From Escherichia phage vB_EcoM-Ro121c4YLVW: a stretch of 64,000 nucleotides of DNA. The translations under genes were made by a program, and so were the position numbers. The stretch lies in sequence record NC_052654.1; one strand, written 5' to 3'. The notes below the pieces were generated by a model. The model had not been told where the DNA came from, searched no databases, and saw only the letters and a list, made by a program, of their open reading frames with translations. Shown here piece after piece: positions 1,757 to 59,297 of this stretch (its first letter is position 1; each line of letters opens with the position of its first letter).

Positions 1757-1835
1757 TGGAGGCGGGAATCGGATTTGAACCGATGATCTCCAGCATATGA
1801 AACTGGCGAGGACGACCAGACTCCTCTATCCCGCT
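1757..1835 (-). tRNA. tRNA with anticodon CAU (Met or Ile2/lysidine)
   Basis: Hand fold: T-arm ATCGG-TTCAAAT-CCGAT, anticodon stem CCAGT/GCTGG, loop TTCATAT, CCA encoded; A1-C72 mismatch at acceptor end. Confidence 0.6.
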
Positions 1836-1841
1836 ATTATG

Positions 1842-1911
1842 TATCCCGTGCTGGATTCGAACCAGCATCACAATAAGCTGTGGAACTCTTATCCTGTAAG
1901 TCTAACGGGAA
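1842..1911 (-). tRNA. tRNA-like gene with non-canonical anticodon arm (4-bp stem CACA/TGTG with 6-nt loop); possible pseudo-tRNA
   Basis: Canonical T-arm GCTGG-TTCGAAT-CCAGC and 6-bp acceptor pairing, but no 5-bp stem / 7-nt loop anticodon arm can be drawn; about 70 nt. Confidence 0.35.
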
Positions 1912-1913
1912 AC

Positions 1914-1987
1914 TGGTTGTTTCGACAAGAATCGAACTTGTGTCTCACGATTATCAGTCGTGGGTTCTACCATTGAACTACGAAACA
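1914..1987 (-). tRNA. tRNA-Ile (anticodon GAU)
   Basis: Hand fold: acceptor TGTTTCG/CGAAACA, D-arm GTTC..GAAC, anticodon stem CACGA/TCGTG, loop CTGATAA, T-loop TTCGATT, CCA encoded. Confidence 0.7.
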
Positions 1988-1993
1988 TTTAAT

Positions 1994-2070
1994 TGGTCGG
2001 GACGGAGTGATTCGAACACTCGACCTCTCGCTCCCAAAGCGAGCGCACTACCAAGCTGTGCTACGTCCCG
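1994..2070 (-). tRNA. tRNA-Pro (anticodon UGG)
   Basis: Hand fold: acceptor CGGGACG/CGTCCCG, anticodon stem CTCGC/GCGAG, loop TTTGGGA, T-arm GAGTG-TTCGAAT-CACTC, CCA encoded. Confidence 0.7.
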
Positions 2071-2163
2071 TGATAACATTCTAAAGGTACACCGCAAAAG
2101 AAAGTGTTCGGCGGCTCCTCGTTTTTAACTTCACACTTAAGGTAGTGACTCACCTTTGTTATA

Positions 2164-2239
2164 TGGCTGGTCTGTCTGGATTTGAACCAAACCTACGACA
2201 GTCAAAGTGTCGTGTGCTACCGGACTACACTACAAACCA
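2164..2239 (-). tRNA. tRNA-Gln (anticodon UUG)
   Basis: Hand fold: acceptor TGGTTTG/CAGACCA, anticodon stem CGACA/TGTCG, loop CTTTGAC, T-loop TTCAAAT, CCA encoded, 76 nt. Confidence 0.65.
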
Positions 2240-2337
2240 ATAAATCATTTAATGAAGGGCAACCAGAAGAAGTGTGAGAGAAGGAGAAAACCATGAGTAA
2301 AAGAGAAAGTTTTCTGGCAACCCTTTATTAAATAATT

Positions 2338-2411
2338 TGGAGCGTTCTACGAGGATCGAACTCGTGCCGCCGACTTGGAAGGACGGAATGCTACCGCTAC
2401 ACCAAGAACGC
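2338..2411 (-). tRNA. tRNA-Gly (anticodon UCC)
   Basis: Hand fold: acceptor GCGTTCT/AGAACGC, T-arm ACGAG-TTCGATC-CTCGT, anticodon loop CTTCCAA (one T-T in stem), CCA encoded. Confidence 0.6.
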
Positions 2412-2422
2412 CATATATATTT

Positions 2423-2452
2423 ACTATACTACATTTTACTATTTGTTGTCAA
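2423..2452 (-). promoter_or_regulatory. sigma70-like promoter inside the tRNA cluster (TTGACA-N18-TATAGT on minus strand)
   Basis: Consensus -35 with near-consensus -10 read on minus strand, directly upstream of tRNA-Gly. Confidence 0.5.
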
Positions 2453-2725
2453 GACTTTTATTGATTGGGACAGTGACGAGTATCCCGTTGGGTGACTAGC
2501 CCTACGTTCGGTAAGCTAACTTAAAATAATACAAAACCAAAGTCAAATATTATTCTTCGTTGCTGTCGATGGGAGAGCCGCTTCTCATTTTGCCCCATCC
2601 AACCCTACTCCGGTCAAGTTTCGGGTGACTCTTTTTGTGATCAACACAATACTAAGAACACTGTCTTTCGAGCAGACCTTGTGCACAGGATACGACGATC
2701 AATCACAGTGCTCTTAATGTTGTGT
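2453..2725 (-). ncRNA. non-tRNA spacer inside tRNA operon; candidate stable small RNA(s)
   Basis: About 270 bp between tRNA-Thr and the internal promoter with no ORF and no T-loop motif; T4 carries non-tRNA stable RNAs in its tRNA region. Confidence 0.25.
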
Positions 2726-2800
2726 TGGTGCTCCCACACTGAATCGAACAGAGATCCACGGATTACAAAACCGTTGTAATAGCCATTATACTATAGGAGC
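2726..2800 (-). tRNA. tRNA-Thr (anticodon UGU)
   Basis: Hand fold: acceptor GCTCCTA/TGGGAGC (one G-U), anticodon stem ACGGT/TCCGT, loop TTTGTAA, T-loop TTCGATT, CCA encoded. Confidence 0.6.
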
Positions 2801-2806
2801 AATGCT

Positions 2807-2884
2807 GGGACTCGGCAGGATTCGATACCTGCAATTCCAGAAGCCTATTGGCGACTGGGGGGTTTACCTTAACTCTACAAGTCC
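2807..2884 (-). tRNA. tRNA-like gene with aberrant D/anticodon region (anticodon not assignable)
   Basis: Good acceptor pairing GGACTTG/CGAGTCC and T-arm GCAGG..CCTGC (8-nt loop TATCGAAT), but the central region (CCCCCC run) does not give a canonical anticodon arm; no CCA encoded. Confidence 0.3.
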
Positions 2885-2891
2885 ATAATTC

Positions 2892-2977
2892 TGGCGATGA
2901 GTATAGGATTCGAACCTATATTGTTCTTTCGAACACGGATTAACAGTCCGCCGCTTAAACCATTCAGCCAACTCATC
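2892..2977 (-). tRNA. type II (long variable arm) tRNA with anticodon GUU (Asn-decoding anticodon on a Tyr-like body)
   Basis: Hand fold: acceptor GATGAGT/ACTCATC, anticodon stem GCGGA/TCCGT, loop CTGTTAA, variable-arm hairpin GTTC-GAAA-GAAC, T-arm ATAGG-TTCGAAT-CCTAT, CCA encoded. Confidence 0.5.
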
Positions 2978-2983
2978 TTAATT

Positions 2984-3071
2984 TGGTGGTGAGTGATGGA
3001 GTCGAACCACCCGAATCGCAATGATAACAGATTTACAGTCTGCCCCGCTACCCCTACGGAATTAACTCACC
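2984..3071 (-). tRNA. tRNA-Tyr (anticodon GUA), type II
   Basis: Hand fold: acceptor GGTGAGT/ACTCACC, anticodon stem GCAGA/TCTGT, loop CTGTAAA, long variable arm, T-loop TTCGACT, CCA encoded. Confidence 0.6.
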
Positions 3072-3201
3072 TAAATACTAATATTTAAATTCTTTTTAAA
3101 ATAGCCAGTGTTCACACCACTAACTATGAGGTATCGGTAAAGTGGTTACCGCCACTTGCCGAAGATTTACTCTGCTAAAGTAAGCTACATTAAAAAGAAC
3201 T

Positions 3202-3287
3202 TGGCGGTAGATGTAGGACTCGAACCTACACGCCGTTTCCGACTACAGTTTAGCAAACTGTCGTGGCTACCATTTCACCAATCTACC
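3202..3287 (-). tRNA. tRNA-Ser (anticodon GCU), type II
   Basis: Hand fold: acceptor GGTAGAT/ATCTACC, anticodon stem ACAGT/ACTGT, loop TTGCTAA, long variable arm, T-arm TGTAGG-TTCGAGT-CCTACA, CCA encoded. Confidence 0.65.
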
Positions 3288-3292
3288 TAATC

Positions 3293-3383
3293 TGGCGGAA
3301 GGAGGGAGAGTCGAACTCCCAAGGCTCTTTCAAGCTCGGCGGTTTTCAAGACCGTTTTCGTCGCCACATCGATTTGCCCTTCC
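3293..3383 (-). tRNA. tRNA-Ser (anticodon UGA), type II
   Basis: Hand fold: acceptor GGAAGGG/TCCTTCC, anticodon stem CGGT/ACCG, loop CTTGAAA, long variable arm, T-arm GGGAG-TTCGACT-CTCCC, CCA encoded. Confidence 0.6.
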
Positions 3384-3617
3384 ATACTTATAATCTAACA
3401 TAAAATAATGTTTGTTGTCAATAGTTTTTTAAAACATTTTACCATGAATGGTGACTCCACCAACCCCCGTTCTCCACGAACGGTGCTCTTCGAGCATTTA
3501 TGTCTTCTAATATAACCGTGGCCTTTGTTTATAATGTCTGACATACTTGCCTCATTCTCTGCCACCATGATCAGTAGTGGGTTCAAATCACTTGAGCTAA
3601 TTCATGTTAAAATGTTC

Positions 3618-3692
3618 TGGTGTCTTTACAAGGAATCGAACCTTGACTAAGAGTTTAGAAGACTCCTGTGCTATCCATTACACCATAAAGAC
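3618..3692 (-). tRNA. tRNA-Arg (anticodon UCU)
   Basis: Hand fold: acceptor GTCTTTA/TAAAGAC, anticodon stem GGAGT/ACTCT, loop CTTCTAA, T-arm CAAGG-TTCGATT-CCTTG, CCA encoded. Confidence 0.7.
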
Positions 3693-3694
3693 TT

Positions 3695-3769
3695 TGGTGG
3701 CCCTGGCTGGTTTCGATCCAGCTACCTATCGGTTATGAGCCGACAGCTCTCCCATTGAGCTACAGGGCC
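3695..3769 (-). tRNA. tRNA with anticodon CAU (Met elongator or Ile2)
   Basis: Hand fold: acceptor GGCCCTG/CAGGGCC, D-arm GCTC-AATGGGAGA-GC, anticodon loop CTCATAA, T-arm GCTGG-ATCGAAA-CCAGC, CCA encoded. Confidence 0.65.
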
Positions 3770-4015
3770 ATAAATGTGGTAACAGAGACGCTGACGATTG
3801 TAGAGAACCGCTACATTCTCTAAGACCAAGCCCAACTTTCAGCGTAAAAGTTCTTGAGCCGAGACTATTCCTTTTCCTCTTTGGTAGCTAACCTCTGAAG
3901 AAGTAGTCTCTAACACTACCGCAGTGCAAGCCCCTCTTAACAAAAGTCAACGACCCTGTTACCACACTTGATGAACGTATCCTAACATATGAAGGATACG
4001 TTTGTCAATAGTTAT

Positions 4016-4264
4016 TTAAGCATATTCTGCTACTTCTTCACTATCTTTCTTTTCCAGAAGAGCAACAACCAAAGCTTCTGCGTTAAAAGTGTTAATTTCA
4101 AGATCCATCTCTCGCATCAGAGCCAAGAAATCAATAACTTTAACATCTTTAGTGATTACAATAGAAGTTGTACCATTGTTTTCAGATGTGTATTTTTCTG
4201 GATGGAAAAGAAAAACTGCATTGCCGTTACCATCTTCAAACACGTGTTTTTCTAATAGAGACAT
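4016..4264 (-). CDS. hypothetical protein
   Basis: ORF track, start moved to internal Met (MSLLEKH) preceded by AGGAGG. Confidence 0.45.
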   Translation of the reverse strand: MSLLEKHVFEDGNGNAVFLFHPEKYTSENNGTTSIVITKDVKVIDFLALMREMDLEINTFNAEALVVALLEKKDSEEVAEYA

Positions 4265-4272
4265 TGTTCCTC

Positions 4273-4524
4273 CTAATCTGTTAGTTGTTCGTCCTCTACC
4301 AAGTTTGACACGAGAACGTCTGTTATACATTGATGCTGATAAACCCTTTCGGGACTATCATCAAAAGCCAAACCTGTGCAAATAGAACAGAGGTCTGATT
4401 CCTTGATGACTCCATTTTTATCACGTCTGGAGTGGTTTGTCAAATGCCTATTACAAGCACGGCACCTAAAATAAAAACTATTTTGCATATATCCTTCGAA
4501 CCCCAAATGGGGAGTGATCGGCAT
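4273..4524 (-). CDS. hypothetical Cys-rich (zinc-binding?) protein
   Basis: ORF track; CxxC...CxxC pattern. Confidence 0.3.
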   Translation of the reverse strand: MPITPHLGFEGYMQNSFYFRCRACNRHLTNHSRRDKNGVIKESDLCSICTGLAFDDSPERVYQHQCITDVLVSNLVEDEQLTD

Positions 4525-4561
4525 CTCCTCACTTCTAGTTTAGCACGAAGGATATCTTAAG

Positions 4562-4747
4562 TCAACTAGGAATAATTTTATCCTTTTTGGTTTCATAACC
4601 AGTCCAATCTAAATCCTCCCAGCCTTCATCATCGTCTAACACATTGTCATCGTCATAAGATGCAATGTTATAAATAGAACGTGGATTACAAGACATACAA
4701 TCTTTAATAGGTACATGATGCCATTTGCACGGATTCTCGCTAATCAT
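4562..4747 (-). CDS. hypothetical acidic protein
   Basis: ORF track; SD GGAGGTG 5 nt upstream of ATG. Confidence 0.45.
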   Translation of the reverse strand: MISENPCKWHHVPIKDCMSCNPRSIYNIASYDDDNVLDDDEGWEDLDWTGYETKKDKIIPS

Positions 4748-4772
4748 TGCACACCTCCATTCTTGTTAAGAT

Positions 4773-4977
4773 GTTCCGTACTGTACTTCATACTGATCTA
4801 TAGATCAAGTATTATTTATAATAATTTATTATTTTATTTTTAATTGATAGAAGTTGATCTGTACGTACCAGTTCTGATACACTGTACCTGTTTGTTAGAT
4901 CTAATAATTATTTATTATTAATATTTAATAATTATTAATCTAGTACGGAGTACAGTACTTGAGTACAGAGTACTACA
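4773..4977. repeat. AT-rich divergent intergenic region flanked by GTAC-rich imperfect inverted repeats (GTACTGTAC / GTACAGTAC) with GATC palindromes
   Basis: Direct reading: ccgtactgtacttcatactg at about 4775 and gtacggagtacagtacttgagtacagagtac at about 4945 flank about 150 bp of more than 85% A+T; sits between minus- and plus-strand gene blocks. Confidence 0.5.
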
Positions 4978-5227
4978 TCAACAACCTAAAACCTTAACTC
5001 GCTGCGCTCGTTAATAGATTTCTAGGGTAGCATACTTCGAACACAAAAGTCAAGAGTTTTATTAAAATTATTTTCTGTGTGCAAAAACCTTGCTTAAACA
5101 GGTAGCAATAGTATAGCCTATAACATAAGCTTCATAAGAGGCTCGTAGAGCAAGTTCACTTACTAGGTAAGGTGATTTATCATCTTATATATAAAAAGTG
5201 CGTCAGAGACGCGTTTAGGAGGCTAGA

Positions 5228-5842: not shown

Positions 5843-6078
5843 GCAACTATCCAATTACAGGCGTAACCTATTCTTGTGTAGCAAAAGGTGGTTTATATAC
5901 GGTAGTGGAATTTCCAAAACCTGCCGGAATATCTAAAGTGTTTGATCCTGTGGTTATCTATGAAGATCTTAGAACAGGTCAACGTTACTGGAGATTTGTG
6001 AATGACTTTTTAGATCGTATGGAGGTAGTAAGTGGCGAAAACACCGAAGAAGTTATCAAAGCCAAAGAACGTTACTAA
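5839..6078 (+). CDS. hypothetical protein
   Basis: ORF track; start overlaps upstream stop. Confidence 0.45.
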   Translation: MSNYPITGVTYSCVAKGGLYTVVEFPKPAGISKVFDPVVIYEDLRTGQRYWRFVNDFLDRMEVVSGENTEEVIKAKERY

Positions 6079-6385
6079 GAAACCGAAAAACGAGGTTCTC
6101 AAAGTAGCCAAATCAGTTCCTAAGAAAGATAAATTTGATACGGAGGCATTCGTCTTTGACACACCAATCGAGAAGATTGAAGAAGCGTTGCAACGTCTTG
6201 AGGAGCAGGAGGCAGATCCAATGGCTGAACCACTCACGGCAGACCAAATTTATTGGTGGGGAATATGGACTTTGCAACTACCAGAAGCAAAAAGAAGGGG
6301 AATGACTTCGGTTCCTACTTGTGCAAAAGAAGCGGCTGTGTTAGGTTTGTATGAGAAATCTAAAAAGAGGAGCAAAAAGAAATGA
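6032..6385 (+). CDS. hypothetical lysine-rich protein (GTG start)
   Basis: ORF track; GGAGG upstream of GTG; overlaps 3' end of upstream gene by 47 nt. Confidence 0.4.
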   Translation: MAKTPKKLSKPKNVTKKPKNEVLKVAKSVPKKDKFDTEAFVFDTPIEKIEEALQRLEEQEADPMAEPLTADQIYWWGIWTLQLPEAKRRGMTSVPTCAKEAAVLGLYEKSKKRSKKK

Positions 6386-6663
6386 TCAAGACTTTCCTGA
6401 AGTGTGTAAAAGCAACAGATAACGAGTGGTACTCTGGATTATTCACTGCTGGCAAGAAATACGAGATCCTCAACGGGACAGGCAAGAAGTTTTCTCTCGT
6501 TGTAAACGATGAAGGCACGAAGCAAATGGTATTTGCTGAAAGTTCTGTTTATGGTATTTTTGAAGTAGTGCAAGAAGGCTCTCCAATGATTCTGGAATAT
6601 CATGGCACTAATAAACCATATACTACTATGGATGTTATCAACAATAAGAGGAATGCAAAATGA
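6382..6663 (+). CDS. hypothetical protein
   Basis: ORF track; ATGA stop-start overlap. Confidence 0.5.
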   Translation: MIKTFLKCVKATDNEWYSGLFTAGKKYEILNGTGKKFSLVVNDEGTKQMVFAESSVYGIFEVVQEGSPMILEYHGTNKPYTTMDVINNKRNAK

Positions 6664-41268: not shown

Positions 41269-41282
41269 AACAAAGGCACCCA

Positions 41283-41312
41283 AGTGGGTGCCTTTTCTAT
41301 TTTAGAGCGTCT
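41283..41312. terminator. bidirectional terminator between convergent gene blocks (GGCACCC-aagt-GGGTGCC flanked by T/A runs)
   Basis: Direct reading. Confidence 0.55.
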
Positions 41313-45548: not shown

Positions 45549-45743
45549 TCTACCTCCTTCGATGCTTTGTGCCGTACCATCCCAAGCCATTAGAATATTT
45601 GCCAATAGTTCACGAGGCTCTTTAAACCAAACTTCCATTTCATCAAGAATCTCGTCCGTGTCGTAAGTATAACCTGGAACACCAAGTTCGCATTTCTTAA
45701 GATAGCTTTCTAACCAGCGGTGATAATTCTTAACCCCATTCAT
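45540..45743 (-). CDS. hypothetical protein
   Basis: ORF track. Confidence 0.4.
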   Translation of the reverse strand: MNGVKNYHRWLESYLKKCELGVPGYTYDTDEILDEMEVWFKEPRELLANILMAWDGTAQSIEGGRNE

Positions 45744-46068
45744 ACTGTGCTACCTTTTCTTTTACCCAATCTACACGATCTTTATCATAATGTTGAGTGC
45801 CAAGGAAAAGACCATTGTGGAAACTTTCCTCACCGAAAGGATAAATCGGATCTAAACCATCTTCTTCAAATAACATTTTTAGTCTCTGTGATGTAGATTT
45901 CTTAGTTTCTGAGTTGTAGTTTGTGGTTATAAGCCAATCTTCCAAACAACGACACAAACCTTGACGAGAATCCCAAGGAAAAACACAATCTCCGACAGGA
46001 GCTTGTTCAGCCCATTTCAACCAGCCTTTAAAAAAGTTATACAGTATGTAGTCTTCAGTGTAATACAT
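45730..46068 (-). CDS. paralogous family A member (GLCxCL / PF(N,G) / R-x-x-WVKDR motifs)
   Basis: Start moved to Met after AAGGAGGAG; shares motifs with five other ORFs in this block. Confidence 0.5.
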   Translation of the reverse strand: MYYTEDYILYNFFKGWLKWAEQAPVGDCVFPWDSRQGLCRCLEDWLITTNYNSETKKSTSQRLKMLFEEDGLDPIYPFGEESFHNGLFLGTQHYDKDRVDWVKEKVAQYEWG

Positions 46069-46119
46069 TATCTCCTCCTTTACGTATACAATAACACCCC
46101 GAAGAACGGGGTGCAACTG

Positions 46120-46735: not shown

Positions 46736-47008
46736 TCACCCCCAAGAAATATTTATATATCTTACAATGTTTGCACTGTCTAAAGCCATGTTTGCACCAC
46801 ACCCACGCTCGCGCCAGTAACTAACAATACCTTCACAGATACTCTCTTGTATCTTCTTATCACTTGGCATTTCTAGTATAAGACTTGGATTGTGGATGTT
46901 TATGTTATAATATCCTTCCTCTGCGGCTTGAGCTACCAATTTACTTACTTTTTCAAAGTACGGGGAATTAGTGGCATCTGCCATTGTTTTTAAGGTTTGT
47001 CTATCCAT
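46736..47008 (-). CDS. hypothetical protein
   Basis: ORF track. Confidence 0.4.
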   Translation of the reverse strand: MDRQTLKTMADATNSPYFEKVSKLVAQAAEEGYYNINIHNPSLILEMPSDKKIQESICEGIVSYWRERGCGANMALDSANIVRYINISWG

Positions 47009-47373
47009 TATTCTGCCTCATCATAGAAGAAATCCAACTCTTGTTCCAGTTGTTTAACTCGATCCTTAACCCACTGTACACGTTTTTCATTAAACATGCA
47101 ACGTTTTTCCTTACACTCTTGCTCAAAAGATTTTGCTGTGTTAAACGGGAAAGTTGTATCTAAACCAGCATTTTCAAAACTGGCTAATTGCATACCATAA
47201 ACAGAATATGCTAAAGAATGATCGGCTCGAAATTCATCACTTATATACATACGTAGACCTCGGCATAAGCCAACATCAGCGTAACCACTTTCTCGTGGAA
47301 AGAGACGGAGGTGTTCTAACCAATTATTATAGAAATCTAAAAGAATCCTCTTACACTTCAAATCAATTGTCAT
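47008..47373 (-). CDS. paralogous family A member
   Basis: Start moved to Met after GAAGGAGAAAC; motifs FYNNWL, GLCRGL, FPFN, VQWVKDRV. Confidence 0.5.
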   Translation of the reverse strand: MTIDLKCKRILLDFYNNWLEHLRLFPRESGYADVGLCRGLRMYISDEFRADHSLAYSVYGMQLASFENAGLDTTFPFNTAKSFEQECKEKRCMFNEKRVQWVKDRVKQLEQELDFFYDEAE

Positions 47374-47773
47374 AAAAAGTTTCTCCTTCATCGAACAAGT
47401 TGGCAAGATTGTTCACCGCAATTTGGGTGGAAAGAAGACAACTGTTTGCAGACACATAAGCACGGGCTATTTTGTAAACATAAGCTTTCGTATTGCAATC
47501 TTCTAAAATCGGAAGACTTTCATCGATAGCATCTATAACACTAAACATTACATCTAAAACTTTAATGGTGAGTGTTGTATTTGTATCTTCGTAACCTTTT
47601 TCAATCCGACCTGAATAGAAAGTATAGTCCTCAACAGTTCGTCGTTTAAATTGGCGCATAAAATCAGAACCATCTGTAGCAGAATTGAACAAATTTTCAA
47701 AAAATACCTCCCATCCGGCAAAAAGGGCTGACAGCATGATTAAGTGGTCTACAGATTCATTTTCTTGTTTCAT
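47363..47773 (-). CDS. hypothetical protein
   Basis: ORF track. Confidence 0.4.
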   Translation of the reverse strand: MKQENESVDHLIMLSALFAGWEVFFENLFNSATDGSDFMRQFKRRTVEDYTFYSGRIEKGYEDTNTTLTIKVLDVMFSVIDAIDESLPILEDCNTKAYVYKIARAYVSANSCLLSTQIAVNNLANLFDEGETFYDN

Positions 47774-49070: not shown

Positions 49071-49418
49071 TTAGTTATGTAAACCCAAATGTGCTACAAC
49101 TTCTCTACGATAAGATAACTGCATAGCGATTTTATAGCCAGGATGAAAACCATTTACATCAATGTCATCAAACCAAACCTCAAACGAACCGTGCTTAAGG
49201 GTCATTAAGTTGATATACCATTCGATAGTATAATGATCGTTAGCAATACCTTCGATGTAAAACTCTCGGCAACAATGAGATAAATCTTCACTTGTTTCAC
49301 GTTTCCAGTCTTTGATAGCACCCTTCTCTTTAGCTTTATTCAGAATGTGGATCAGGTCTTCAACTTGCATATTCTCTCCTTTAGTTCCAACTAATAACGA
49401 TGTGTTTGATAATCCCAA
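49071..49418 (-). CDS. hypothetical protein
   Basis: ORF track. Confidence 0.4.
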   Translation of the reverse strand: MGLSNTSLLVGTKGENMQVEDLIHILNKAKEKGAIKDWKRETSEDLSHCCREFYIEGIANDHYTIEWYINLMTLKHGSFEVWFDDIDVNGFHPGYKIAMQLSYRREVVAHLGLHN

Positions 49419-49935
49419 AAATACTGTGCTCTGCGGTTGCCAATGTTACATCCAAACCTTTTGCACGTAGCATTGTAGCTACAACATTTGCCCCTCTTTT
49501 CTGTTCACTTATCTGTTCATAAGAAGAAGGGTTATTGCACAAACCAAAACTGGAAGGTTCAAAGTATTTTTCAAACTTCCCTTGTTCTGCACAATCTTCA
49601 ATCTCTAATAGAACGGCGTCTACCATTTCAGTAAAATGGGAATTTGCTTGCAGTGCTTTATTACGCAGTTTATCACGTAAACTTCCCGTAGATTCTTCCT
49701 GCTCTTCTGTCTGTCCATCTTCACAGAAAGGATGAAGTTCAGCCCAGTCCCAAGCATCTCCTTCTAAAGCAAATGGAGTGTTGTAATTGAAGAAAGTGCA
49801 GCGCGGATATTCCCCGTTGAAAGAATCTTTCAGCAGAATATATTTCTTACCGTTTGCATGGAAGAGTTCTCCTTTGATAACCTTACCTACAAGGATATCA
49901 CTGTTAGTGGAACGGGTGCAAATAAATTTTTTCAT
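49381..49935 (-). CDS. hypothetical protein
   Basis: ORF track. Confidence 0.4.
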   Translation of the reverse strand: MKKFICTRSTNSDILVGKVIKGELFHANGKKYILLKDSFNGEYPRCTFFNYNTPFALEGDAWDWAELHPFCEDGQTEEQEESTGSLRDKLRNKALQANSHFTEMVDAVLLEIEDCAEQGKFEKYFEPSSFGLCNNPSSYEQISEQKRGANVVATMLRAKGLDVTLATAEHSIFGIIKHIVISWN

Positions 49936-50219: not shown

Positions 50220-50443
50220 TCTTCCATCTCAAACCATTCAGGGAACACTTTGCGGAAGACCCGCGTGTTTTCTAAGAGAAATTCCAACTCTTTTTCCAAA
50301 TCTGCGTTCCAACCGTTTATTTTAACACGGATTGCCAATGCACTTGCACGGCGACTCAATTCTTGACAGATTGGATCACGCAGAACTATTGAGTCATAAA
50401 ACTGACAAACAGCCTCAAGTTCATACCAGTTATAATCCGACAT
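50216..50443 (-). CDS. hypothetical protein
   Basis: ORF track. Confidence 0.4.
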   Translation of the reverse strand: MSDYNWYELEAVCQFYDSIVLRDPICQELSRRASALAIRVKINGWNADLEKELEFLLENTRVFRKVFPEWFEMEE

Positions 50444-50769
50444 TATTCATCCTCCTCTGCAATACGATCTCTTACCCAATTAATCCTGTCCACGTTCAGG
50501 TGACATACCTCTGCATCTGATTCTAAGATATATGCATCGTAGTTCTCATTGAAAGGGAGTGCTTGACTCAACCCTTTGTGGTAAAACTGTGCGTGCATTT
50601 CATCTGACAAGATTGTTATAATGGGGTTGTAATTACCTCTGTGCACATAATCGAACAAGTTGGCACACAAACCACAATCCCGCCGAAAAGGTTTACCATC
50701 AGGAGCACCAACATCAATCCATGCTAGATAAATTTTATAAAACTCCATCAACCTTGTGCTTGTTTTCAT
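50443..50769 (-). CDS. paralogous family A member
   Basis: SD GAGGTGG; motifs FYKIYLAWI, GLCANL, LPFN, INWVRDRI. Confidence 0.5.
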   Translation of the reverse strand: MKTSTRLMEFYKIYLAWIDVGAPDGKPFRRDCGLCANLFDYVHRGNYNPIITILSDEMHAQFYHKGLSQALPFNENYDAYILESDAEVCHLNVDRINWVRDRIAEEDE

Positions 50770-52354: not shown

Positions 52355-52753
52355 TTATCGTTGCGTACAATCAGCTTCTAGAGTAAGAACATTCGTTATT
52401 GTTTTATCATTTTTTAGAAATGCAAACCAAGCCAAAGTGTCTCGATACTCTGTGCGCATCATTACTACTTCAGTAGTGCCAATAAATTGTTGTGAACCGT
52501 ACATAGCACTACCATCTTTACTTTTTTCTCCTGTGTATTGCAGAATGCCACTCATCAAAGCACCACCTGAATTTTTAAGGATAAAGGAGTTATCTTTATT
52601 AATGACAACAGAAGCCATTTTCTTAGGACCAGAAATCACTTCACCTTTCAGATTTTTAACAACCACATCTGACACACACTCATAAACTTGAGACGCATTT
52701 GCTGTTCCAAGTGATGCAACGAGTAGCAATAAACCTACAATGATCTTTTTCAT
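52355..52753 (-). CDS. secreted protein (signal peptide)
   Basis: ORF track; N-terminal MKKIIVGLLLLVASLGTANA. Confidence 0.45.
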   Translation of the reverse strand: MKKIIVGLLLLVASLGTANASQVYECVSDVVVKNLKGEVISGPKKMASVVINKDNSFILKNSGGALMSGILQYTGEKSKDGSAMYGSQQFIGTTEVVMMRTEYRDTLAWFAFLKNDKTITNVLTLEADCTQR

Positions 52754-52848: not shown

Positions 52849-53055
52849 TTACGCTTTTAATGTTTTAACAGAATGACAAGCTTTGCAAACCATAACCGGA
52901 ACAAGTTCATCTCCATTATCCGCATAAATCACTGTTTTCTTCATTCTGCCACCGCATGAACAATACTCTGTATGATCCGCAGGAATATTAAATATTCCGT
53001 AATCACTTTCATACTGTTTCTTACATATGGACACTGCTTTCGTAAAACAAGACAT
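52849..53055 (-). CDS. small zinc-ribbon protein
   Basis: ORF track; CxC...CxxC. Confidence 0.4.
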   Translation of the reverse strand: MSCFTKAVSICKKQYESDYGIFNIPADHTEYCSCGGRMKKTVIYADNGDELVPVMVCKACHSVKTLKA

Positions 53056-53057
53056 GC

Positions 53058-53279
53058 CTACTCCGCAAGAACCTTCACTTCGTCAGAGAAGAATACGTAA
53101 TCACAACCTTCCCAAACATCTTCTTCAAACCACTCCCATCCCTCGACTTTGGACATTTCTTCTATCGTAACAAAGAATGTTGTCATATCCTCACTAACAA
53201 GATGTGCTTCAACAACAAAAGGAATCTGAACATTCTCAAAACCAACATAACCCAATACATCACAAACTCTAATTTTCAT
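53058..53279 (-). CDS. paralogous family B member (MKIR..., W-x-W-F-E-E, DYVFF)
   Basis: ORF track; similar to 56571..56792. Confidence 0.45.
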   Translation of the reverse strand: MKIRVCDVLGYVGFENVQIPFVVEAHLVSEDMTTFFVTIEEMSKVEGWEWFEEDVWEGCDYVFFSDEVKVLAE

Positions 53280-53280
53280 A

Positions 53281-53481
53281 TTATGCTCCTTTGTAGATTA
53301 TGTTGGTGCGTTCACACTCTGCCACCAGCAAGCGATTAGCAATGTTGTCCATAGGAACATCAATCTCTACGCTCCAAGCGTTGATATACACTTCTTCAAT
53401 CTTTGCTCCAAGCATTTGTGCGATCAGAGCAACAGCGCCAGCATACTCAAGTTTAATCTCAATTACCATTTTGCACCTCAA
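53281..53481 (-). CDS. hypothetical protein
   Basis: ORF track. Confidence 0.4.
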   Translation of the reverse strand: MRCKMVIEIKLEYAGAVALIAQMLGAKIEEVYINAWSVEIDVPMDNIANRLLVAECERTNIIYKGA

Positions 53482-53483
53482 GG

Positions 53484-53720
53484 TTATTTGTCTTGCTTGT
53501 ATCTTACAAGGCGATCACACTCCAGGTCAAGAAATTTCTCCGCATTTCGTTCATGTTTGAGCACAATACATTGTTCTTTCCAGTCTGTAGCTCTTTGCTG
53601 CGCTGCTCCTGGGTCAAAATCCCAAAGCCATGCCGCGAAAAGAACAACCATAACAATTACCAAGAAACTAAACACTATTGGCATTGCACATCCTCCTGTG
53701 TAGCATGATCTTTTACCCAT
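53484..53720 (-). CDS. small membrane protein
   Basis: ORF track; TM helix. Confidence 0.4.
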   Translation of the reverse strand: MGKRSCYTGGCAMPIVFSFLVIVMVVLFAAWLWDFDPGAAQQRATDWKEQCIVLKHERNAEKFLDLECDRLVRYKQDK

Positions 53721-53989
53721 TTTATACGGGCAGCATTCAAATGCAATAGCCCGTTTCTTTGTGCAAAATCATATTTAAACCAGTCTCCGTCATCAAACGG
53801 GTATTCTTCAGACAATCCTGCTTCTCGAAATTGCATTTGCATTTCATAATTTAGGTCATCATAACCACCAGACCAAAGATAGAGGCAACTGCACAAACCT
53901 TTATCGTGCCAGAAAGGATTATTATCTGGAGCACCAGCTAACAGCCAATTATGATAGGCTTGATAAAATTCTTTAAGTTCTTCTGACAT
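53675..53989 (-). CDS. paralogous family A member
   Basis: SD AGGGGG; motifs FYQAYHNWL, GLCSCL, YPFD, IKWVKDH. Confidence 0.5.
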   Translation of the reverse strand: MSEELKEFYQAYHNWLLAGAPDNNPFWHDKGLCSCLYLWSGGYDDLNYEMQMQFREAGLSEEYPFDDGDWFKYDFAQRNGLLHLNAARIKWVKDHATQEDVQCQ

Positions 53990-54187
53990 TTAACCCCCTG
54001 TGTACAGTGTTGAAAGATACACAGCAAAAGCATTCTCGGCTGTTTTAACCTCCTCTTCAAGATCTTCACGCTCTGCTGGCGTTAGCGCATTTCGCACAGC
54101 AGCGTCTGCTTCTCGGATTTTTCTTACTAAACGTGAAACATCTTTCAGTTGTTGAAAAGTAGCCATAATCTTCCTCCTTTTAGTCAA
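53990..54187 (-). CDS. hypothetical protein
   Basis: ORF track. Confidence 0.4.
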   Translation of the reverse strand: MTKRRKIMATFQQLKDVSRLVRKIREADAAVRNALTPAEREDLEEEVKTAENAFAVYLSTLYTGG

Positions 54188-54479
54188 ACCAGTTGTATTC
54201 GGAAGGGTAACGAGCGTAGTTTGGCTTGTACCCCAGTCTTTTCATCTTAACAGACATACGAGTGAAGCCAAAGGTTGTTTTGCCCTTAGACATAAACTTC
54301 TTCCCACTCTTCATTGGCTTCTTAGGGTTTTTGATCGTCTGGTGTAACGCTCGCGCAAGCCACAAAGTGTATGCGCTCGGCACTTGATTAACTTTCATCT
54401 TGTTACCTTTCATCGAAACCTCCTCAGTGAACTTCGTGCCAAGTGCCAAACTCTTCTGCTGATACTTTAGGAACGGCAT
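54180..54479 (-). CDS. hypothetical basic protein
   Basis: ORF track. Confidence 0.4.
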   Translation of the reverse strand: MPFLKYQQKSLALGTKFTEEVSMKGNKMKVNQVPSAYTLWLARALHQTIKNPKKPMKSGKKFMSKGKTTFGFTRMSVKMKRLGYKPNYARYPSEYNWFD

Positions 54480-54651
54480 GAGTTTCTCGGTATTTGTTTA
54501 AAGCTTTCTCAATGGCTGTAGCAAAAACATCTTGTGATTTATAAGGCATATAATAAGAGCGTCCCATGTATGCCACTGCATCACGTAATTCTTCTGCTTG
54601 CTCTTGTGTAACTGTCAATGTGATAGTAACCATTATTTCACCTCCGACCAA
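54424..54651 (-). CDS. hypothetical protein
   Basis: ORF track. Confidence 0.35.
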   Translation of the reverse strand: MVGGEIMVTITLTVTQEQAEELRDAVAYMGRSYYMPYKSQDVFATAIEKALNKYRETHAVPKVSAEEFGTWHEVH

Positions 54652-54932
54652 TCAATAGTGATCCACTCGTATGCCCCGTTCAGATCCATTTCTTTATAAA
54701 CAATAAGCCCACGCTCACGAAGAATTGCTACTGCTTCATCCATCCACTTCACCTGATTGTAGATCTCCCCTGGGTGGGTAGGGGAATTATCCAGACCAAA
54801 ATCAGATGGCGTGAAATTTCTTGAAGAGTTTCCCGCTCGTGCTTCAGCAAAACATGTCTCGATCACTTCTTCAACAGGGAAGTTGAAGGAAGCTTCTTTT
54901 GCAATACGGCGTAACTGTTCGGTCAGATTCAT
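54633..54932 (-). CDS. hypothetical protein
   Basis: ORF track. Confidence 0.4.
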   Translation of the reverse strand: MNLTEQLRRIAKEASFNFPVEEVIETCFAEARAGNSSRNFTPSDFGLDNSPTHPGEIYNQVKWMDEAVAILRERGLIVYKEMDLNGAYEWITIDWSEVK

Positions 54933-54959
54933 TTTATTCTCCTTTCGTTGTGCGAAACA

Positions 54960-55397
54960 TTACAGCAGATCTAATGCTTTCAACTCTTCTTTCAATGATT
55001 CAGGCAGGTCACATTCAATGTCAATCAGAGATAACAAGTGACCAACAATGCCTTCCAGATGTTGATACTCACTATAACTTATAAATTCAGAATTGTAAAC
55101 AGAAACATCCTTAGTTTCTTTCACAACTTCCCCCGCAGACACGCACATAAAAAAGTTACGCTCTCCGCGAGCTAACAATATCTCCCAACTTCTGAACGGA
55201 TACTGTCCAGCTTCAATAATATCTCCGCTGTCCAATAAGGTCAATGAGCAAACAGACCCTGATTCACTAACATCTTCGACGCGGAAACAAGACCCTTCAA
55301 TCAAAGCTGCCATTTTGAAATTTTCATCAGAGATCATAGAGAAAGCTTCACATGCAGCTTTGCTTTTGAAACAGTAAACAGCATTAATTTTAAACAT
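54960..55397 (-). CDS. hypothetical protein
   Basis: ORF track. Confidence 0.45.
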   Translation of the reverse strand: MFKINAVYCFKSKAACEAFSMISDENFKMAALIEGSCFRVEDVSESGSVCSLTLLDSGDIIEAGQYPFRSWEILLARGERNFFMCVSAGEVVKETKDVSVYNSEFISYSEYQHLEGIVGHLLSLIDIECDLPESLKEELKALDLL

Positions 55398-55409
55398 AAC
55401 ATTCTCCTT

Positions 55410-55868
55410 TTAAACAAAAGATACGCCGATGGTAGCAACAACCAAACGTTTATAAACTTCAACCTCTTCTGTAGGATTAGCCATTTTATGCTCCGCTGCT
55501 TCTTTCAAAGCTTCTTCATAATTTTGAGATCCAGAAATACAGGTGTCACCAGTCATTACAACATACCACTCTTCTTTTGTTGTATCAACAGGTTCTTCTT
55601 GGGGTTTTCCACGACCACCACGAACACCACCGTCAACAAAATAATCTATATGAGCAGAATTGATTATGTAACGATCCCCATCACCAGCAGTGATAATACC
55701 ATCTCTCATACCTATTACAACCATTGACAAGATATTACCATTTGCATCAGTGCTCAACACCTCGAAAAAATTCTCTCCAATGATAGCCGCAATACTGTTA
55801 TCAAAGGTAGAATATAGTCGCATATAATCCTCATCCTGGAAACGGTAGACATGACCTTCTTTAAACAT
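55410..55868 (-). CDS. hypothetical protein
   Basis: ORF track. Confidence 0.45.
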   Translation of the reverse strand: MFKEGHVYRFQDEDYMRLYSTFDNSIAAIIGENFFEVLSTDANGNILSMVVIGMRDGIITAGDGDRYIINSAHIDYFVDGGVRGGRGKPQEEPVDTTKEEWYVVMTGDTCISGSQNYEEALKEAAEHKMANPTEEVEVYKRLVVATIGVSFV

Positions 55869-56322
55869 TGCTCTCTCCTCCTAGTTCATCATACCATTTC
55901 AAAGCGTCTTTTGGAAGCATACCAAAATCTTCTTTTAGCTCTTTTTCAATCTCTTCTTGCATTTCCATCAGCATTTTCAATTGACGGACTTTTTTGTGCA
56001 TAGCCACATTCCTTTCATTAAGGTTTGTCACTACATTATTTGCACGACTCGGTGGAAACGACAAAGGTTTCACGGGAAGATAATCTTCGATATTATCTAG
56101 TGCGTTACGAAAATTATGATCCAAGAAACGCACATCTACACGATTGTAATCGGCAGCTACAACAGTGAACACTTTAAACGGCACATTGGATAAAGTATGT
56201 TGCACACAGACAGTACCCATATTACCTTCAATTTTACTGGTAACTTCCAGCACACCTGTATGAGCACTAACATAATCGTGAACACATTGCACATAGGCTG
56301 CCAGTATAGTGAATTGTCTCAT
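55861..56322 (-). CDS. hypothetical protein
   Basis: ORF track. Confidence 0.45.
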   Translation of the reverse strand: MRQFTILAAYVQCVHDYVSAHTGVLEVTSKIEGNMGTVCVQHTLSNVPFKVFTVVAADYNRVDVRFLDHNFRNALDNIEDYLPVKPLSFPPSRANNVVTNLNERNVAMHKKVRQLKMLMEMQEEIEKELKEDFGMLPKDALKWYDELGGESNV

Positions 56323-56567
56323 TTTCTACCTCCCCATAATGCTAACATTTTATTGAAAATGGAAACGCGTCGTGCGCGAGATGCCATATCATAATTCATT
56401 CTTTCCGTCTCTGCAAGAAATTGATCTACGGTAATCAACGCTTTTGTCTTCTCTTTCAGAGTTTGCATATTCATCCATTCACATTCAGAGTACCAATTAT
56501 CGAAATACAAACTATCGAGAAGATCCATTGCTGCTTCATTCTGTTGTGGTGTGATCATTGCACACAA
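56319..56567 (-). CDS. hypothetical protein
   Basis: ORF track. Confidence 0.4.
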   Translation of the reverse strand: MCAMITPQQNEAAMDLLDSLYFDNWYSECEWMNMQTLKEKTKALITVDQFLAETERMNYDMASRARRVSIFNKMLALWGGRK

Positions 56568-56570
56568 CCC

Positions 56571-56792
56571 TTAATAGACAATTTCATATTCGTGAGGAAA
56601 GAAAACATAATCTTCCCCTTCTCGTGCATCTATCTCGTCCCAAAACCATTCCTGCACTTCCATCATCTTCGAGAATCGCACATGAGCAAGCCCACTGTAT
56701 TCCACCGTAGCTTCCAACACAAGTGGGAATTTTGCACGGGTAAGTCCTTTATAACCACCATCATTCTCAATACGAATTTTCATGCGTTTCAT
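56571..56792 (-). CDS. paralogous family B member
   Basis: ORF 56571..56801 with probable start at second Met; MKIRIENDGG...VQEWFWDEID...DYVFF. Confidence 0.45.
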   Translation of the reverse strand: MKRMKIRIENDGGYKGLTRAKFPLVLEATVEYSGLAHVRFSKMMEVQEWFWDEIDAREGEDYVFFPHEYEIVY

Positions 56793-56793
56793 G

Positions 56794-57003
56794 TTATGCA
56801 TCCTTCAGACCCTTAATAAAGTAACGACCAACCGGATTCCCTCGGAAGTATTCGTTAATGAAATCGATAACACACGTTTCACTGCCTGTCACAACGGACG
56901 GCTTAAAGTTTTGGAATTCTACAGCTACACGGCTGGCTTTAGCCAGTGCTTGCACACGTGTAGGATCAGTCAAGAACATTGTGACAGTTTTCAAATTCTT
57001 CAT
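56794..57003 (-). CDS. hypothetical protein
   Basis: ORF track. Confidence 0.4.
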   Translation of the reverse strand: MKNLKTVTMFLTDPTRVQALAKASRVAVEFQNFKPSVVTGSETCVIDFINEYFRGNPVGRYFIKGLKDA

Positions 57004-57052: not shown

Positions 57053-57436
57053 TTATTCAATGCAAGCATTATTTGCATCTTCAATGCGATCTTTCACCCA
57101 TTGCACACGAAACTTGTTGGTATGACACGCTAAAGCTATACACTCTGAAAGGTAATCCATGCAATCTGCATTGAACGGAAGATTGTAGTCCAGCCCTGCA
57201 CATGTAAATTGTTTCCTCATTTCATATTTCAAACGGTCTAACAAATGATCACGCCATCTTCTATCTTCTTCTCTAGTTGTCTCACCAACAAAATCATCTA
57301 CATAGTCTACCAGACAACCACATAAGCCACTCGTTGTGCGATTCATTGCAGGATAGTTGGCAATCCATGCTTTATAGAAGCGAAGCAATGTTGCACTACT
57401 CAACGGAATACTATTTGTCATTTTTCTCTCCTTCAT
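57053..57436 (-). CDS. paralogous family A member
   Basis: SD AAGGAGAG; motifs FYKAWI, GLCGCL, LPFN, VQWVKDRI. Confidence 0.5.
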   Translation of the reverse strand: MKERKMTNSIPLSSATLLRFYKAWIANYPAMNRTTSGLCGCLVDYVDDFVGETTREEDRRWRDHLLDRLKYEMRKQFTCAGLDYNLPFNADCMDYLSECIALACHTNKFRVQWVKDRIEDANNACIE

Positions 57437-57755
57437 AATCTTGAATTCTATCTAGCACCCATTGTATACGATGTTTGTTTTTATGGCAAATATGTTTTTT
57501 ATGTTCGAAGGTGTATTCCTCATAACCACCTTCATTAAACGGGAAATTGTAATCCAATCCTGCACCAATAAACTGTGATTTCATCTCCTGTTGTAGACGA
57601 GGTAACAGTTCATCAGGATATGTTCCCTCTACATACTTAATCAAACATATGCACAAACCACTCGTTGTGTGACCTTCTACCTCACCAGCAAGCCAAGCTT
57701 TGTAAAACTTCATTAGACGTAAACTGCTCAACGGAACATTTTTACTCTTTTGCAT
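57411..57755 (-). CDS. paralogous family A member
   Basis: SD GAGGAGA; motifs FYKAWL, GLCICL, FPFN, IQWVLDRI. Confidence 0.5.
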   Translation of the reverse strand: MQKSKNVPLSSLRLMKFYKAWLAGEVEGHTTSGLCICLIKYVEGTYPDELLPRLQQEMKSQFIGAGLDYNFPFNEGGYEEYTFEHKKHICHKNKHRIQWVLDRIQDYEGEKNDK

Positions 57756-57759
57756 GACA

Positions 57760-59270
57760 ATCTCCTCTCATCGTTAGCCATCTTTCATGGCAATCATCAA
57801 TCACCAACATCATACGATCAATCTTAGGGAATTACAATCGAATTATCATAGGGGATTCCTATCAATTATCCCATATATACCGATTATTTTTGACACCCCA
57901 CTCTTGTATAAAAAGTAACCCAAAATATCTACGGGGAGAGATTATTTCGGGACACCCTGTTTCATAGCAATCATGGCAAGAATATCTAATAGAATCAATA
58001 TGATATGGCAAAAATCATGGCGCATACGTAAGAAGTGCTTAACGCGAATTTTCGGGCCGTCAGGTCCACGCAGCGACAATTCCCAAATATCATGCGAATG
58101 AGAATAATTATCATTCGTATTCAATGACTTATGCAAGGCTCATGCCAACATAGCGACAAGGTGGGCCACTTGATTATAAATCACACAAACACTTATTTAT
58201 CAATGGTTTGGCAACTTCATCATATGACGGAACAATGTCAACTGATCCCGCTCATGACAAGCAGACTATTATTTATATGAGAATGATTATTATTTAAACG
58301 TTTATTAACATATAAACTAAAATAAATCAAGAATTTTCTGATTTTATTTACGTTTAAGAGAAGGTGCTCAACATATCGCTACGCGATAGTATTCGCCCCC
58401 AAAAGATTAGCCTTTATTTTCTTGTATGTTTATACACTGCGTGTACATCTATGTGCACACTATGCAACCTGTCGCTATTCGCTCATGTTGCTACGTGCAA
58501 TTATTCATCTTGCTAATGATTTCATATTGTAACTATTACAATGACTATTGTTATTGCGCTAATGTTATGATCTTGGTAATTACATATAATGCTAATAATA
58601 AGCCAGCGCAATAAGTGTAAGCGTCATTACGCTTGCAATTATTGCAAGCTACGCAGTAACAAGAAATAACCGTCACCGATGGTTATGATTGTTGGGGTGT
58701 AGTTGGCTTATTATTAGCTCGCTATGTGTCCGGCATAGCGTGCTAATGATGACTCTGTGAATGATTCGTTTTGTAATGATTTCATTCAGGCACTATTTTG
58801 CTAATAGTTATTATTTTAATGGTTTCGTTTGTTATTGTTCGTTAGTTGGTTGTTTTGTCGTGTTATCGTTATCTTGCTTAGTATTCATCATGGTTTGATT
58901 GTTTGTCATTATCAATCATCTTGCTATTATTCCTTTGATTATGATTAGTTTGCTTATTGTTTTAGGTTGTTGGTTGGTTAGTTGTTGCGAACTATTATCA
59001 ACATTATAGTTATGCACTTATATTGCATAGATAAACATGGATAGATGATAATGGTTATCATTGCACCAGAAAGGAGGTAAAAGGGTGTTTTTGATGGTTT
59101 GTTGTTGGTTGTTGATCGATTTTAACCGCTTTAAATGGCTCTCTAACAGCCTGTTACCCTGGGAGGTATGGTTATTCATTTAATGGTTGATTAGCTTGAT
59201 ACCACTATTTATTCAGTTTTGTTCTGTGTCGGTTTTCCATAGGCGGAATCTATCAACATTGTTCGGGCAA
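57760..59270. repeat. 1.5-kb non-coding, repeat-rich region (GCTAAT-type short direct repeats, palindromes, G+T-skewed tract)
   Basis: No credible ORF; repeated gctaatg / gtaatgatttcat / ttgttattg motifs; palindromes aagcgtcattacgctt and cttgcaattattgcaag; long GT-rich tract 58800-59000. Confidence 0.5.
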
Positions 59271-59297
59271 AAAGAAAGGGCGCTTGGTGCGCCCCTT
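59271..59297 (-). terminator. intrinsic terminator GGGCGC-ttggt-GCGCCC + TTTCTTT (minus strand)
   Basis: Direct reading. Confidence 0.55.

Follow-up and report, generated by a model that had tools for sequence, protein, structure and literature searches.

Two small genes in a minus-strand block of an Escherichia phage raise the question of whether their resemblance reflects common descent, how old the pair is, and what it may do for the phage. The window, meaning the whole 64,000-nt stretch of vB_EcoM-Ro121c4YLVW (NC_052654.1; Phapecoctavirus, phAPEC8-like) that was analyzed, shares ~98% identity with deposited Phapecoctavirus genomes. Taken together, the analysis indicates that the two genes, here called B1 and B2 (Table 1), are probably anciently diverged members of a phage-specific ~70-aa beta-domain family, for which an early accessory role is proposed.

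Table 1. Positions of the two genes and their ribosome-binding sites in the window
Feature	Position	Strand	Description
B1	53058..53279	-	73-aa protein, 8.6 kDa, pI 4.05, net charge ~-13; PHROG 15322
B2	56571..56792	-	73-aa protein, pI 5.09, net charge ~-4; PHROG 15322
B1 Shine-Dalgarno AAAGGAG	53286..53292	-	6 nt 5' of ATG; read off the sequence
B2 Shine-Dalgarno-like GAAGGA	56801..56806	-	8 nt 5' of ATG at 56792; read off the sequence

Homology and coding status of the two genes

Both reading frames that the first-pass annotation had paired on the minus strand are present, as are the motifs it listed for them, namely MKIR(V/I), P-x-V-(V/L)-EA, V-(E/Q)-(G/E)-W-(E/F)-W-(F/D)-E-(E/I)-D, and DYVFF-x-x-E; only the EM described as common to the two is confined to the first protein, the second having KM. 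BLASTP aligned B1 and B2 with 26 identical residues out of 71 (37%), 54% positives, and a single 2-aa gap (E = 5e-13). The alignment was significant when tested by shuffling, as the Smith-Waterman score of 110 compares with 25.3 ± 4.8 for shuffled sequences (z = 17.6) and was reached by none of the 5000 shuffles. In a phmmer search of the 865 six-frame ORFs of the window, B1 and B2 matched only each other (E ~5e-10), so that the window holds exactly two members of this family. B1 and B2 are homologous, and this is confirmed.

The start of B2 was placed at 56792, which is M4 of the longest ORF (56571-56801, 76 aa), has the best Shine-Dalgarno spacing, and gives the 222-nt CDS annotated in phAPEC8_ev052 (LR597654); the domain proper begins at M7 (56783). 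Packing is tight at both loci, with the stop codon of the upstream gene lying 1 nt before the B1 ATG and the TAA of the gene upstream of B2 (56796-56794) ending 1 nt before its ATG. Both are genuine protein-coding genes and evolve under purifying selection, with dN/dS values of 0.04-0.24 for B1 and 0.16-0.41 for B2. The idea that the likeness stems from chance or composition, or that the ORFs are not genes, has a practically negligible probability, as only the shortness of the ORFs speaks for it, and it is refuted by the shuffles, the full-length PHROG matches (E ~1e-41 to 1e-43), and dN/dS far under 1, with the Shine-Dalgarno sites before both genes and the confident predicted fold also against it. 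The antisense ORFs match each other as well, a by-product of the sense-strand homology.

A known family of modular phage proteins

Searches with HMMs of phage families assigned both proteins to PHROG 15322, a family annotated as "unknown function", with B1 matching at E = 2.7e-43 (residues 1-73 on profile positions 1-73 of 73) and B2 at E = 3.3e-41 (residues 4-73 on positions 1-72 of 73). Both also matched PHROG 13367 more weakly. In addition, the pVOG label VOG6032 is carried by the records of orthologues, from which this assignment is taken, i.e., gp125 of phage anhysbys (B1 orthologue, 96% identical) and gp129 of phage alia (B2-type). Both proteins are identical or near-identical to deposited hypothetical proteins, and their counterparts in related genomes are likewise annotated as hypothetical. 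The family was thus already known from public catalogues, which group both proteins, and in this respect the finding is an ordinary one.

Pfam and NCBIfam searches with B1 and B2 gave no match, a PDB sequence search gave no relative, and no enzyme-like family was matched in any of the three. The family is small, as a search of 1.84 billion representatives at E<=1e-3 gave just 50 clusters, and among cultured phages it is nearly confined to the lineage of this phage. Little was gained from a word-indexed protein search using the family profile, which turned up few further members and none with a name.

The domain behaves as a module, being found by itself, as tandem copies, or joined to a helical domain at the C-terminus, and many relatives carry such an extension or tandem domains. 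In two-domain relatives, the N-terminal domain is homologous to the B proteins and the C-terminal helical domain, ending in ...KMIEEGV, shows a sub-threshold similarity to Pfam DUF7438 and relates to PHROG 26590/25740. This architecture was found in the nearest relatives of B1 outside Phapecoctavirus (P0013 and CDS0010 of Klebsiella phage phi1_175008), whereas the window proteins lack the extension. B1 itself bears the signature of its clade, a 2-residue insertion (TTFFV) and DVWEGC. An HMM of the extension recovered Klebsiella phage proteins at E = 4e-31 to 4e-12, and no stand-alone extension was found with it in the window (best E = 0.44, an unrelated plus-strand ORF). Gene fission, in which B2 and the downstream 82-aa gene with "YSECEW" would correspond to two-domain relatives with "YESECGS", was considered and rejected, because this HMM hit neither the 82-aa ORF nor any other ORF of the window at E<0.4.

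Predicted structure

The fold was modelled on B1, with which B2 aligns along its full length. AlphaFold2 with a 45-sequence alignment predicted a small five-stranded beta domain (pLDDT 95.6, pTM 0.83); an earlier model from 11 close sequences (pLDDT 52.7) was set aside as poor. A conserved aromatic/acidic loop, GW-W..ED..EG.DY, is seen in the B1 model. Like the SH3-like small beta-barrels (SH3, Tudor, PRC-barrel, and Sm-like), the model is five-stranded, all-beta, and ~70 residues long, but two of its loops (residues 6-20 and 43-59) are long, in contrast to the canonical SH3 loop pattern. A Foldseek search of the PDB returned nothing significant, the best matches being SH3 domains (E>=0.36, query TM<=0.49, rmsd 5-7 Å); with TM = 0.49 and E = 0.36 at best, the model falls short of an SH3 fold as defined by TM>0.5 and a significant Foldseek E-value. 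Numerous uncharacterised small phage proteins matched the B1 model at TM 0.68-0.83, and one PRC-barrel phage protein was among the BFVD matches. A confidently predicted fold without a solved counterpart that is shared across many phage groups is of modest added value.

Genomic context of the block

B1 and B2 lie in a long minus-strand array of tightly packed, co-directional small genes at ~41-58 kb, which converges with a nucleotide-metabolism operon on a bidirectional terminator. A consensus promoter scan of the block gave sites at chance level, and an Rfam scan of 52-60 kb gave no match. Further paralogs occur in the block, comprising family A with six members and two additional pairs. Family A (PHROG 2510), an example of the multi-copy small-gene families in the early regions of large virulent phages, likewise consists of several diverged copies in the co-directional array; it is unrelated in sequence to the B family, which has only two copies here. 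In unrelated phages, B-family members have an early-operon context, in which a divergent HTH repressor lies a few genes upstream of them and replication genes (PDDEXK nuclease, ssDNA-binding protein, and DNA polymerase) follow shortly after.

Age and origin of the pair

Several lines of evidence bear on the age of the pair. The codon alignment of B1 and B2 has 50% nucleotide identity with saturated dS, and their flanking genes show no homology (z<0), on which ground a segmental duplication of an A-x-B unit was rejected. Moreover, B1 and B2 are not sisters in the family tree, where B1 joins other-phage proteins with the C-terminal extension (bootstrap 90) and B2 weakly joins other lineages (bootstrap 55% on a 70-residue alignment). 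The saturated dS, the non-homologous flanks, and the closer affinity of either copy to proteins of other phages mark the split between B1 and B2 as ancient. The pair may have arisen from one old duplication or from an old recombinational gain of a second allele, and its origin would long predate the divergence of the sequenced Phapecoctavirus genomes.

Comparison of relatives revealed how the locus varies. Family copy number ranges from 1 to 3 across genomes. Phage anhysbys lacks B2 through a clean deletion, Justusliebigvirus has one family copy, and P0006 and P0011 carry frameshifted B2 variants, so that each gene is individually dispensable among Stephanstirmvirinae. In phAPEC8_ev052, two ~750 bp cassettes are inserted between the paralogs. 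In ZCKP1, the B2 region has undergone allele replacement (71% identical, against 96% for the flanks); this phage also has a tandem pair of B2-type genes that are 53% identical to each other, the second being nearer the Justusliebigvirus gene (59%) than its own neighbour. Gene-cassette indels and allele replacement, not recent duplication, thus account for the recent change in the block, and the locus serves as an illustration of this mode of early-block change.

Of the two old origins, a xenologous one, with the second copy recombined in from a phage with a diverged allele, is a credible possibility, if not the favoured one. It fits the separate placement of B1 and B2 among relatives in other phages, their non-homologous flanks, the visible mosaicism of the block (the ZCKP1 replacement and the cassette indels), and the affinity of the second ZCKP1 copy to Justusliebigvirus. 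Against it, a B1-type gene and a second family member lie one gene apart in Klebsiella phage phi1_175008 (unclassified Stephanstirmvirinae), an arrangement consistent with a tandem pair that arose long ago and later moved apart, albeit with a partner of a third clade and not B2; the near restriction of the family to this lineage among cultured phages also weighs against it.

The first-pass annotation had concluded from the pair, together with family A, that duplication and divergence are shaping the block. This interpretation is partly supported: B1 and B2 are indeed homologous and are not the only paralogs present, but they do not show that such a process is now under way in the block. An ongoing, recent duplication is very improbable for them: the several paralog families and the ZCKP1 tandem pair are in its favour, yet it is already contradicted by the nucleotide identity, the saturated dS, and the copies in relatives. 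Near-identical copies are absent from all of the ~110-115 phage records that gave a match, copies within one genome are at most ~53% identical among the fetched loci compared, and even the ZCKP1 tandem genes reach only that level. Neither the nucleotide identity nor homologous flanks nor a sister relationship that would mark a recent tandem or segmental duplication was found. An anciently diverged pair remains the preferred reading.

Putative roles

B1 and B2 may be early-expressed accessory proteins. Their small size, lack of catalytic motifs, and modularity led us to infer that they would act by binding a macromolecule of the host or the phage and not by catalysis, presumably in host takeover or counter-defence. 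The copies may also have diverged to different partners or specificities, as their net charges (-13 versus -4) hint. A literature search retrieved no transcriptome, essentiality, or functional data for the B family or Phapecoctavirus early genes; the only transposon map retrieved is that of the Vequintavirinae phage Bas54, for which the searches gave no link to the family.

Alternatively, the two proteins could serve the phage's own programme, for instance as cofactors in transcription or replication or as chaperones in assembly. The position of members just upstream of replication genes in unrelated phages and the purifying selection on both proteins are consistent with this role, but it is rather unlikely given that each copy is absent from some otherwise similar genomes, that copy number varies, and that frameshifted alleles exist. 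An accessory binding role is thus preferred.

A bolder and quite tentative proposal is that the family represents a widespread phage-only fold, without a solved representative, whose conserved aromatic/acidic loop would act at an early stage of infection to inhibit a factor of host defence or housekeeping, with the paralogs and the C-terminal helical module of relatives tuning specificity and with B1 as a potential nucleic-acid mimic. The strong acidity of B1 is only suggestive of a likeness to known anti-defence proteins or DNA mimics (such as Ocr, ArdA, and Arn); the PDB sequence search gave no hit, and the PDB fold search gave no significant one. The pair carries little weight alone; the domain, being modular and individually dispensable, can reasonably be entered into screens for accessory or counter-defence genes of phages.

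B1 and B2 form a genuine homologous pair

The minus-strand ORFs B1 and B2, which the first-pass annotation had proposed as a small paralog pair (family B), encode proteins sharing 37% identity over 71 residues (BLASTP, E=5e-13), and their similarity remained significant after shuffling (Smith-Waterman score of 110 against 25.3 +/- 4.8 in 5000 shuffles; z=17.6). Searched against the window's six-frame ORFs (865 in all), each protein matched only the other (E ~5e-10). The motifs quoted for the pair were accurate, except that "EM" reads "KM" in B2. Shine-Dalgarno sites were identified at both genes, and the stop of the preceding gene lies 1 nt before each start. The pair was thus noted correctly and its similarity is highly significant, although it is an ordinary finding. 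The weak mutual match (34%, E=2e-4) of the antisense ORFs 53046-53336(+) and 56346-56813(+) is an artefact of sense-strand homology and does not point to genes there.

The HMM check against the phage family catalogue placed both proteins, at full length, in PHROG 15322 (E=2.7e-43 for B1 and 3.3e-41 for B2), with weaker matches to PHROG 13367, both families being listed as "unknown function". The pVOG label VOG6032 is attached to orthologues in annotated genomes, and in phAPEC8_ev052 each ORF is a 222-nt hypothetical-protein gene. B1 and B2 are already present in deposited records and in public family catalogues, which group them without assigning a function. No match was found in Pfam, NCBIfam, or PDB sequences, and only 50 clusters reached E<=1e-3 when 1.84 billion representative proteins were searched with the profile.

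A compact and modular domain

The B domain (~70 aa; consensus MKIRLLNDGGYxGLxxVxFPVxVEA...V....M..hPGW....D...G..YxF...ExEVVE) has an invariant P20, with K2, V37, Y61, F63, and E67 conserved at >=90%. Many relatives also carry a C-terminal helical domain of ~55 aa, ending ...EEEKRLLKEIIKMIEEGV, which matches PHROGs 26590 and 25740 and, below threshold, Pfam DUF7438. This fusion was found in two more distant Stephanstirmvirinae phages, at 3596-3964 and 4317-4775 of Klebsiella phage phi1_175008 (L004) and at 4443-4847 of L006; in the former, a B1-type gene and a third-clade member are separated by one gene. Three relatives from the protein searches (P0041, P0043, and P0031) contain two tandem B domains.

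AlphaFold2 performed poorly with 11 close sequences (pLDDT 52.7), and a 45-sequence domain alignment was used instead, yielding a pLDDT of 95.6 and a pTM of 0.83. The predicted domain has strands at 2-5, 21-24, 34-38, 60-64, and 68-72. Residues 39-42 form a short helix, and the conserved aromatic and acidic residues are carried by a long loop (43-59) that was placed with confidence. Foldseek against the PDB returned only insignificant SH3-like matches (E>=0.36, TM<=0.49), and against predicted viral structures it recovered the homologue of Klebsiella phage ZCKP1 (TM 0.83), many uncharacterised small proteins of RB49, Sf20, VpV262, Merlin, CS01, and others (TM 0.68-0.8), and a pSf-1 protein (TM 0.67). 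Thus, the predicted B fold is phage-wide and lacks a solved representative.

Age and origin of the split

Family B occurs in ~110-115 cultured-phage records (tblastn), and the records examined came from Stephanstirmvirinae or phages close to them. Both genes are present in most Phapecoctavirus genomes, with three copies in ZCKP1 and Shigella phage SF1-1 and a single copy in Justusliebigvirus. Orthologue dN/dS was 0.04-0.24 for B1 and 0.16-0.41 for B2; between B1 and B2, dS was saturated and nucleotide identity was 50%. In the NJ tree, B1 grouped with the relative P0013 and the upstream gene of phi1_175008 (bootstrap 90), both with a C-terminal extension, and B2 joined the Justusliebigvirus gene, the ZCKP1 copies, and several proteins from metagenomes with weak support (bootstrap 55); falling in separate groups, they are not mutual closest relatives. 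No homology was detected between the genes flanking B1 and those flanking B2. The paralogy is ancient, arising either from an old in-lineage duplication or from a second allele gained through recombination.

ZCKP1 carries tandem B2-type genes (6001-6231 and 6221-6439; 11-nt overlap, 53% identical), the second being 59% identical to the Justusliebigvirus copy, exceeding its identity to its neighbour. An old tandem duplication followed by differential loss would account for this arrangement, as would acquisition through recombination.

In this region, E. coli Stephanstirmvirinae phages are also matched by records that bear other host names: Acinetobacter phage vB_AbaM_ABPW7 (95.6% DNA identity), Pseudomonas phage PsgM04F (~72% DNA identity), and the Campylobacter phage records A150, A110a, and A145, whose B proteins show the same identity as that of Justusliebigvirus. 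These host labels may merit scrutiny.

Dynamics of the small-gene block

Family A is far more expanded than family B, with six paralogs at 28-46% identity (E from 5e-31 to 5e-5); all three scanned matched PHROG 2510 ("unknown function"), and counterparts in relatives are labelled pVOG VOG7392. In a further pair, the 99-aa protein aligns in full with the C-terminal portion of its 184-aa partner. The adjacent PHROG 3710 paralogs are "goF / RNA metabolism modulator"-like in one relative's record, and phAPEC8_ev052 has an additional 786-nt gene between their counterparts.

In phage anhysbys, B2 alone is cleanly deleted (8 bp there correspond to window positions 56799 to 56563), and phAPEC8_ev052 has two ~750-bp insertions between B1 and B2. 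In ZCKP1, the B2 region is 71% identical and the DNA directly downstream ~96% identical. Frameshifted B2 variants (P0006 and P0011) have tails fitting a +1 G insertion in a GGGG run. From families A and B, the block had been described as evolving by duplication and divergence; this is only partly right, as the split between the paralogs is ancient and the present dynamics are cassette gain and loss with allele exchange.

Features of the window in and around the small-gene block
Feature	Coordinates	Strand	Description or evidence
B1	53058-53279	-	ORF, 73 aa
B2	56571-56792	-	ORF, 73 aa; longest ORF to 56801
Family A paralogs (six)	57411-57755, 57053-57436, 53675-53989, 50443-50769, 47008-47406, 45730-46116	-	BLASTP
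Adjacent paralogs	54960-55397, 55410-55868	-	Smith-Waterman z=6.2; both match PHROG 3710
Further paralog pair	49381-49935, 54633-54932	-	30% identity over 110 aa, E=9e-8
B1 neighbour	52355-52753	-	132 aa, apparent signal peptide (MKKIIVGLLLLVASLGTANA)
B1 neighbour	52849-53055	-	68 aa, CxC...CxxC zinc-ribbon-like pattern; PHROG match listed "unknown function"
B1 neighbour	53484-53720	-	78 aa, one hydrophobic transmembrane-like segment
Plus-strand block	~6-41 kb	+	Nucleotide metabolism and replication: ribonucleotide reductase, thymidylate synthase, ligases, PhoH, Sir2-like
Small-gene array	~41-58 kb	-	Tightly packed; converges with plus-strand block
Bidirectional terminator	41272-41295		Meeting point of the two blocks
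Strong terminator	59297-59275	-	ORF-poor stretch 57756-59275 lies downstream

Potential role of family B

B1 and B2 are homologous, selected, and individually dispensable; each encodes a compact beta domain that is modular and specific to phages. On metagenomic contigs, two distant members occupy the early operon of phages that are otherwise unrelated, 3-4 genes downstream of an HTH repressor transcribed in the opposite direction. One of the two is directly upstream of genes for a PDDEXK nuclease, an ssDNA-binding protein, and DNA polymerase A. Given that they are small, show no enzyme-like signature, have invariant residues that look structural, and belong to a domain fused to other modules, B1 and B2 may be early accessory proteins that bind a macromolecule of the host or of the phage. 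Their differing net charges (-13.4 for B1 vs -4.3 for B2) suggest that they have diverged in specificity.

Genome setting

The 4.3 kb around B1 and B2 is 95-98% identical to >50 deposited Phapecoctavirus genomes (phAPEC8-like, Stephanstirmvirinae; e.g., ESCO25 and phAPEC8_ev052). A switch in the sign of GC skew coincides with the bidirectional terminator. An AT-rich stretch of ~1.5 kb with few ORFs lies directly upstream of the small-gene block's first gene; it gave no hit to Rfam, and its repeats are short and scattered. A similar unannotated gap occupies the same place in five relatives' loci (L001 9529-11072, L002, from ZCKP1, 3644-5186, L003 3852-5673, L005 939-2549, and L009 4395-5977), and the stretch could be an early promoter/regulatory region or an origin. 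Ten tRNA genes (two for Met and one each for Ile, Pro, Gln, Gly, Thr, Asn, Ser, and Arg) are also clustered at 1757-3769 (-).
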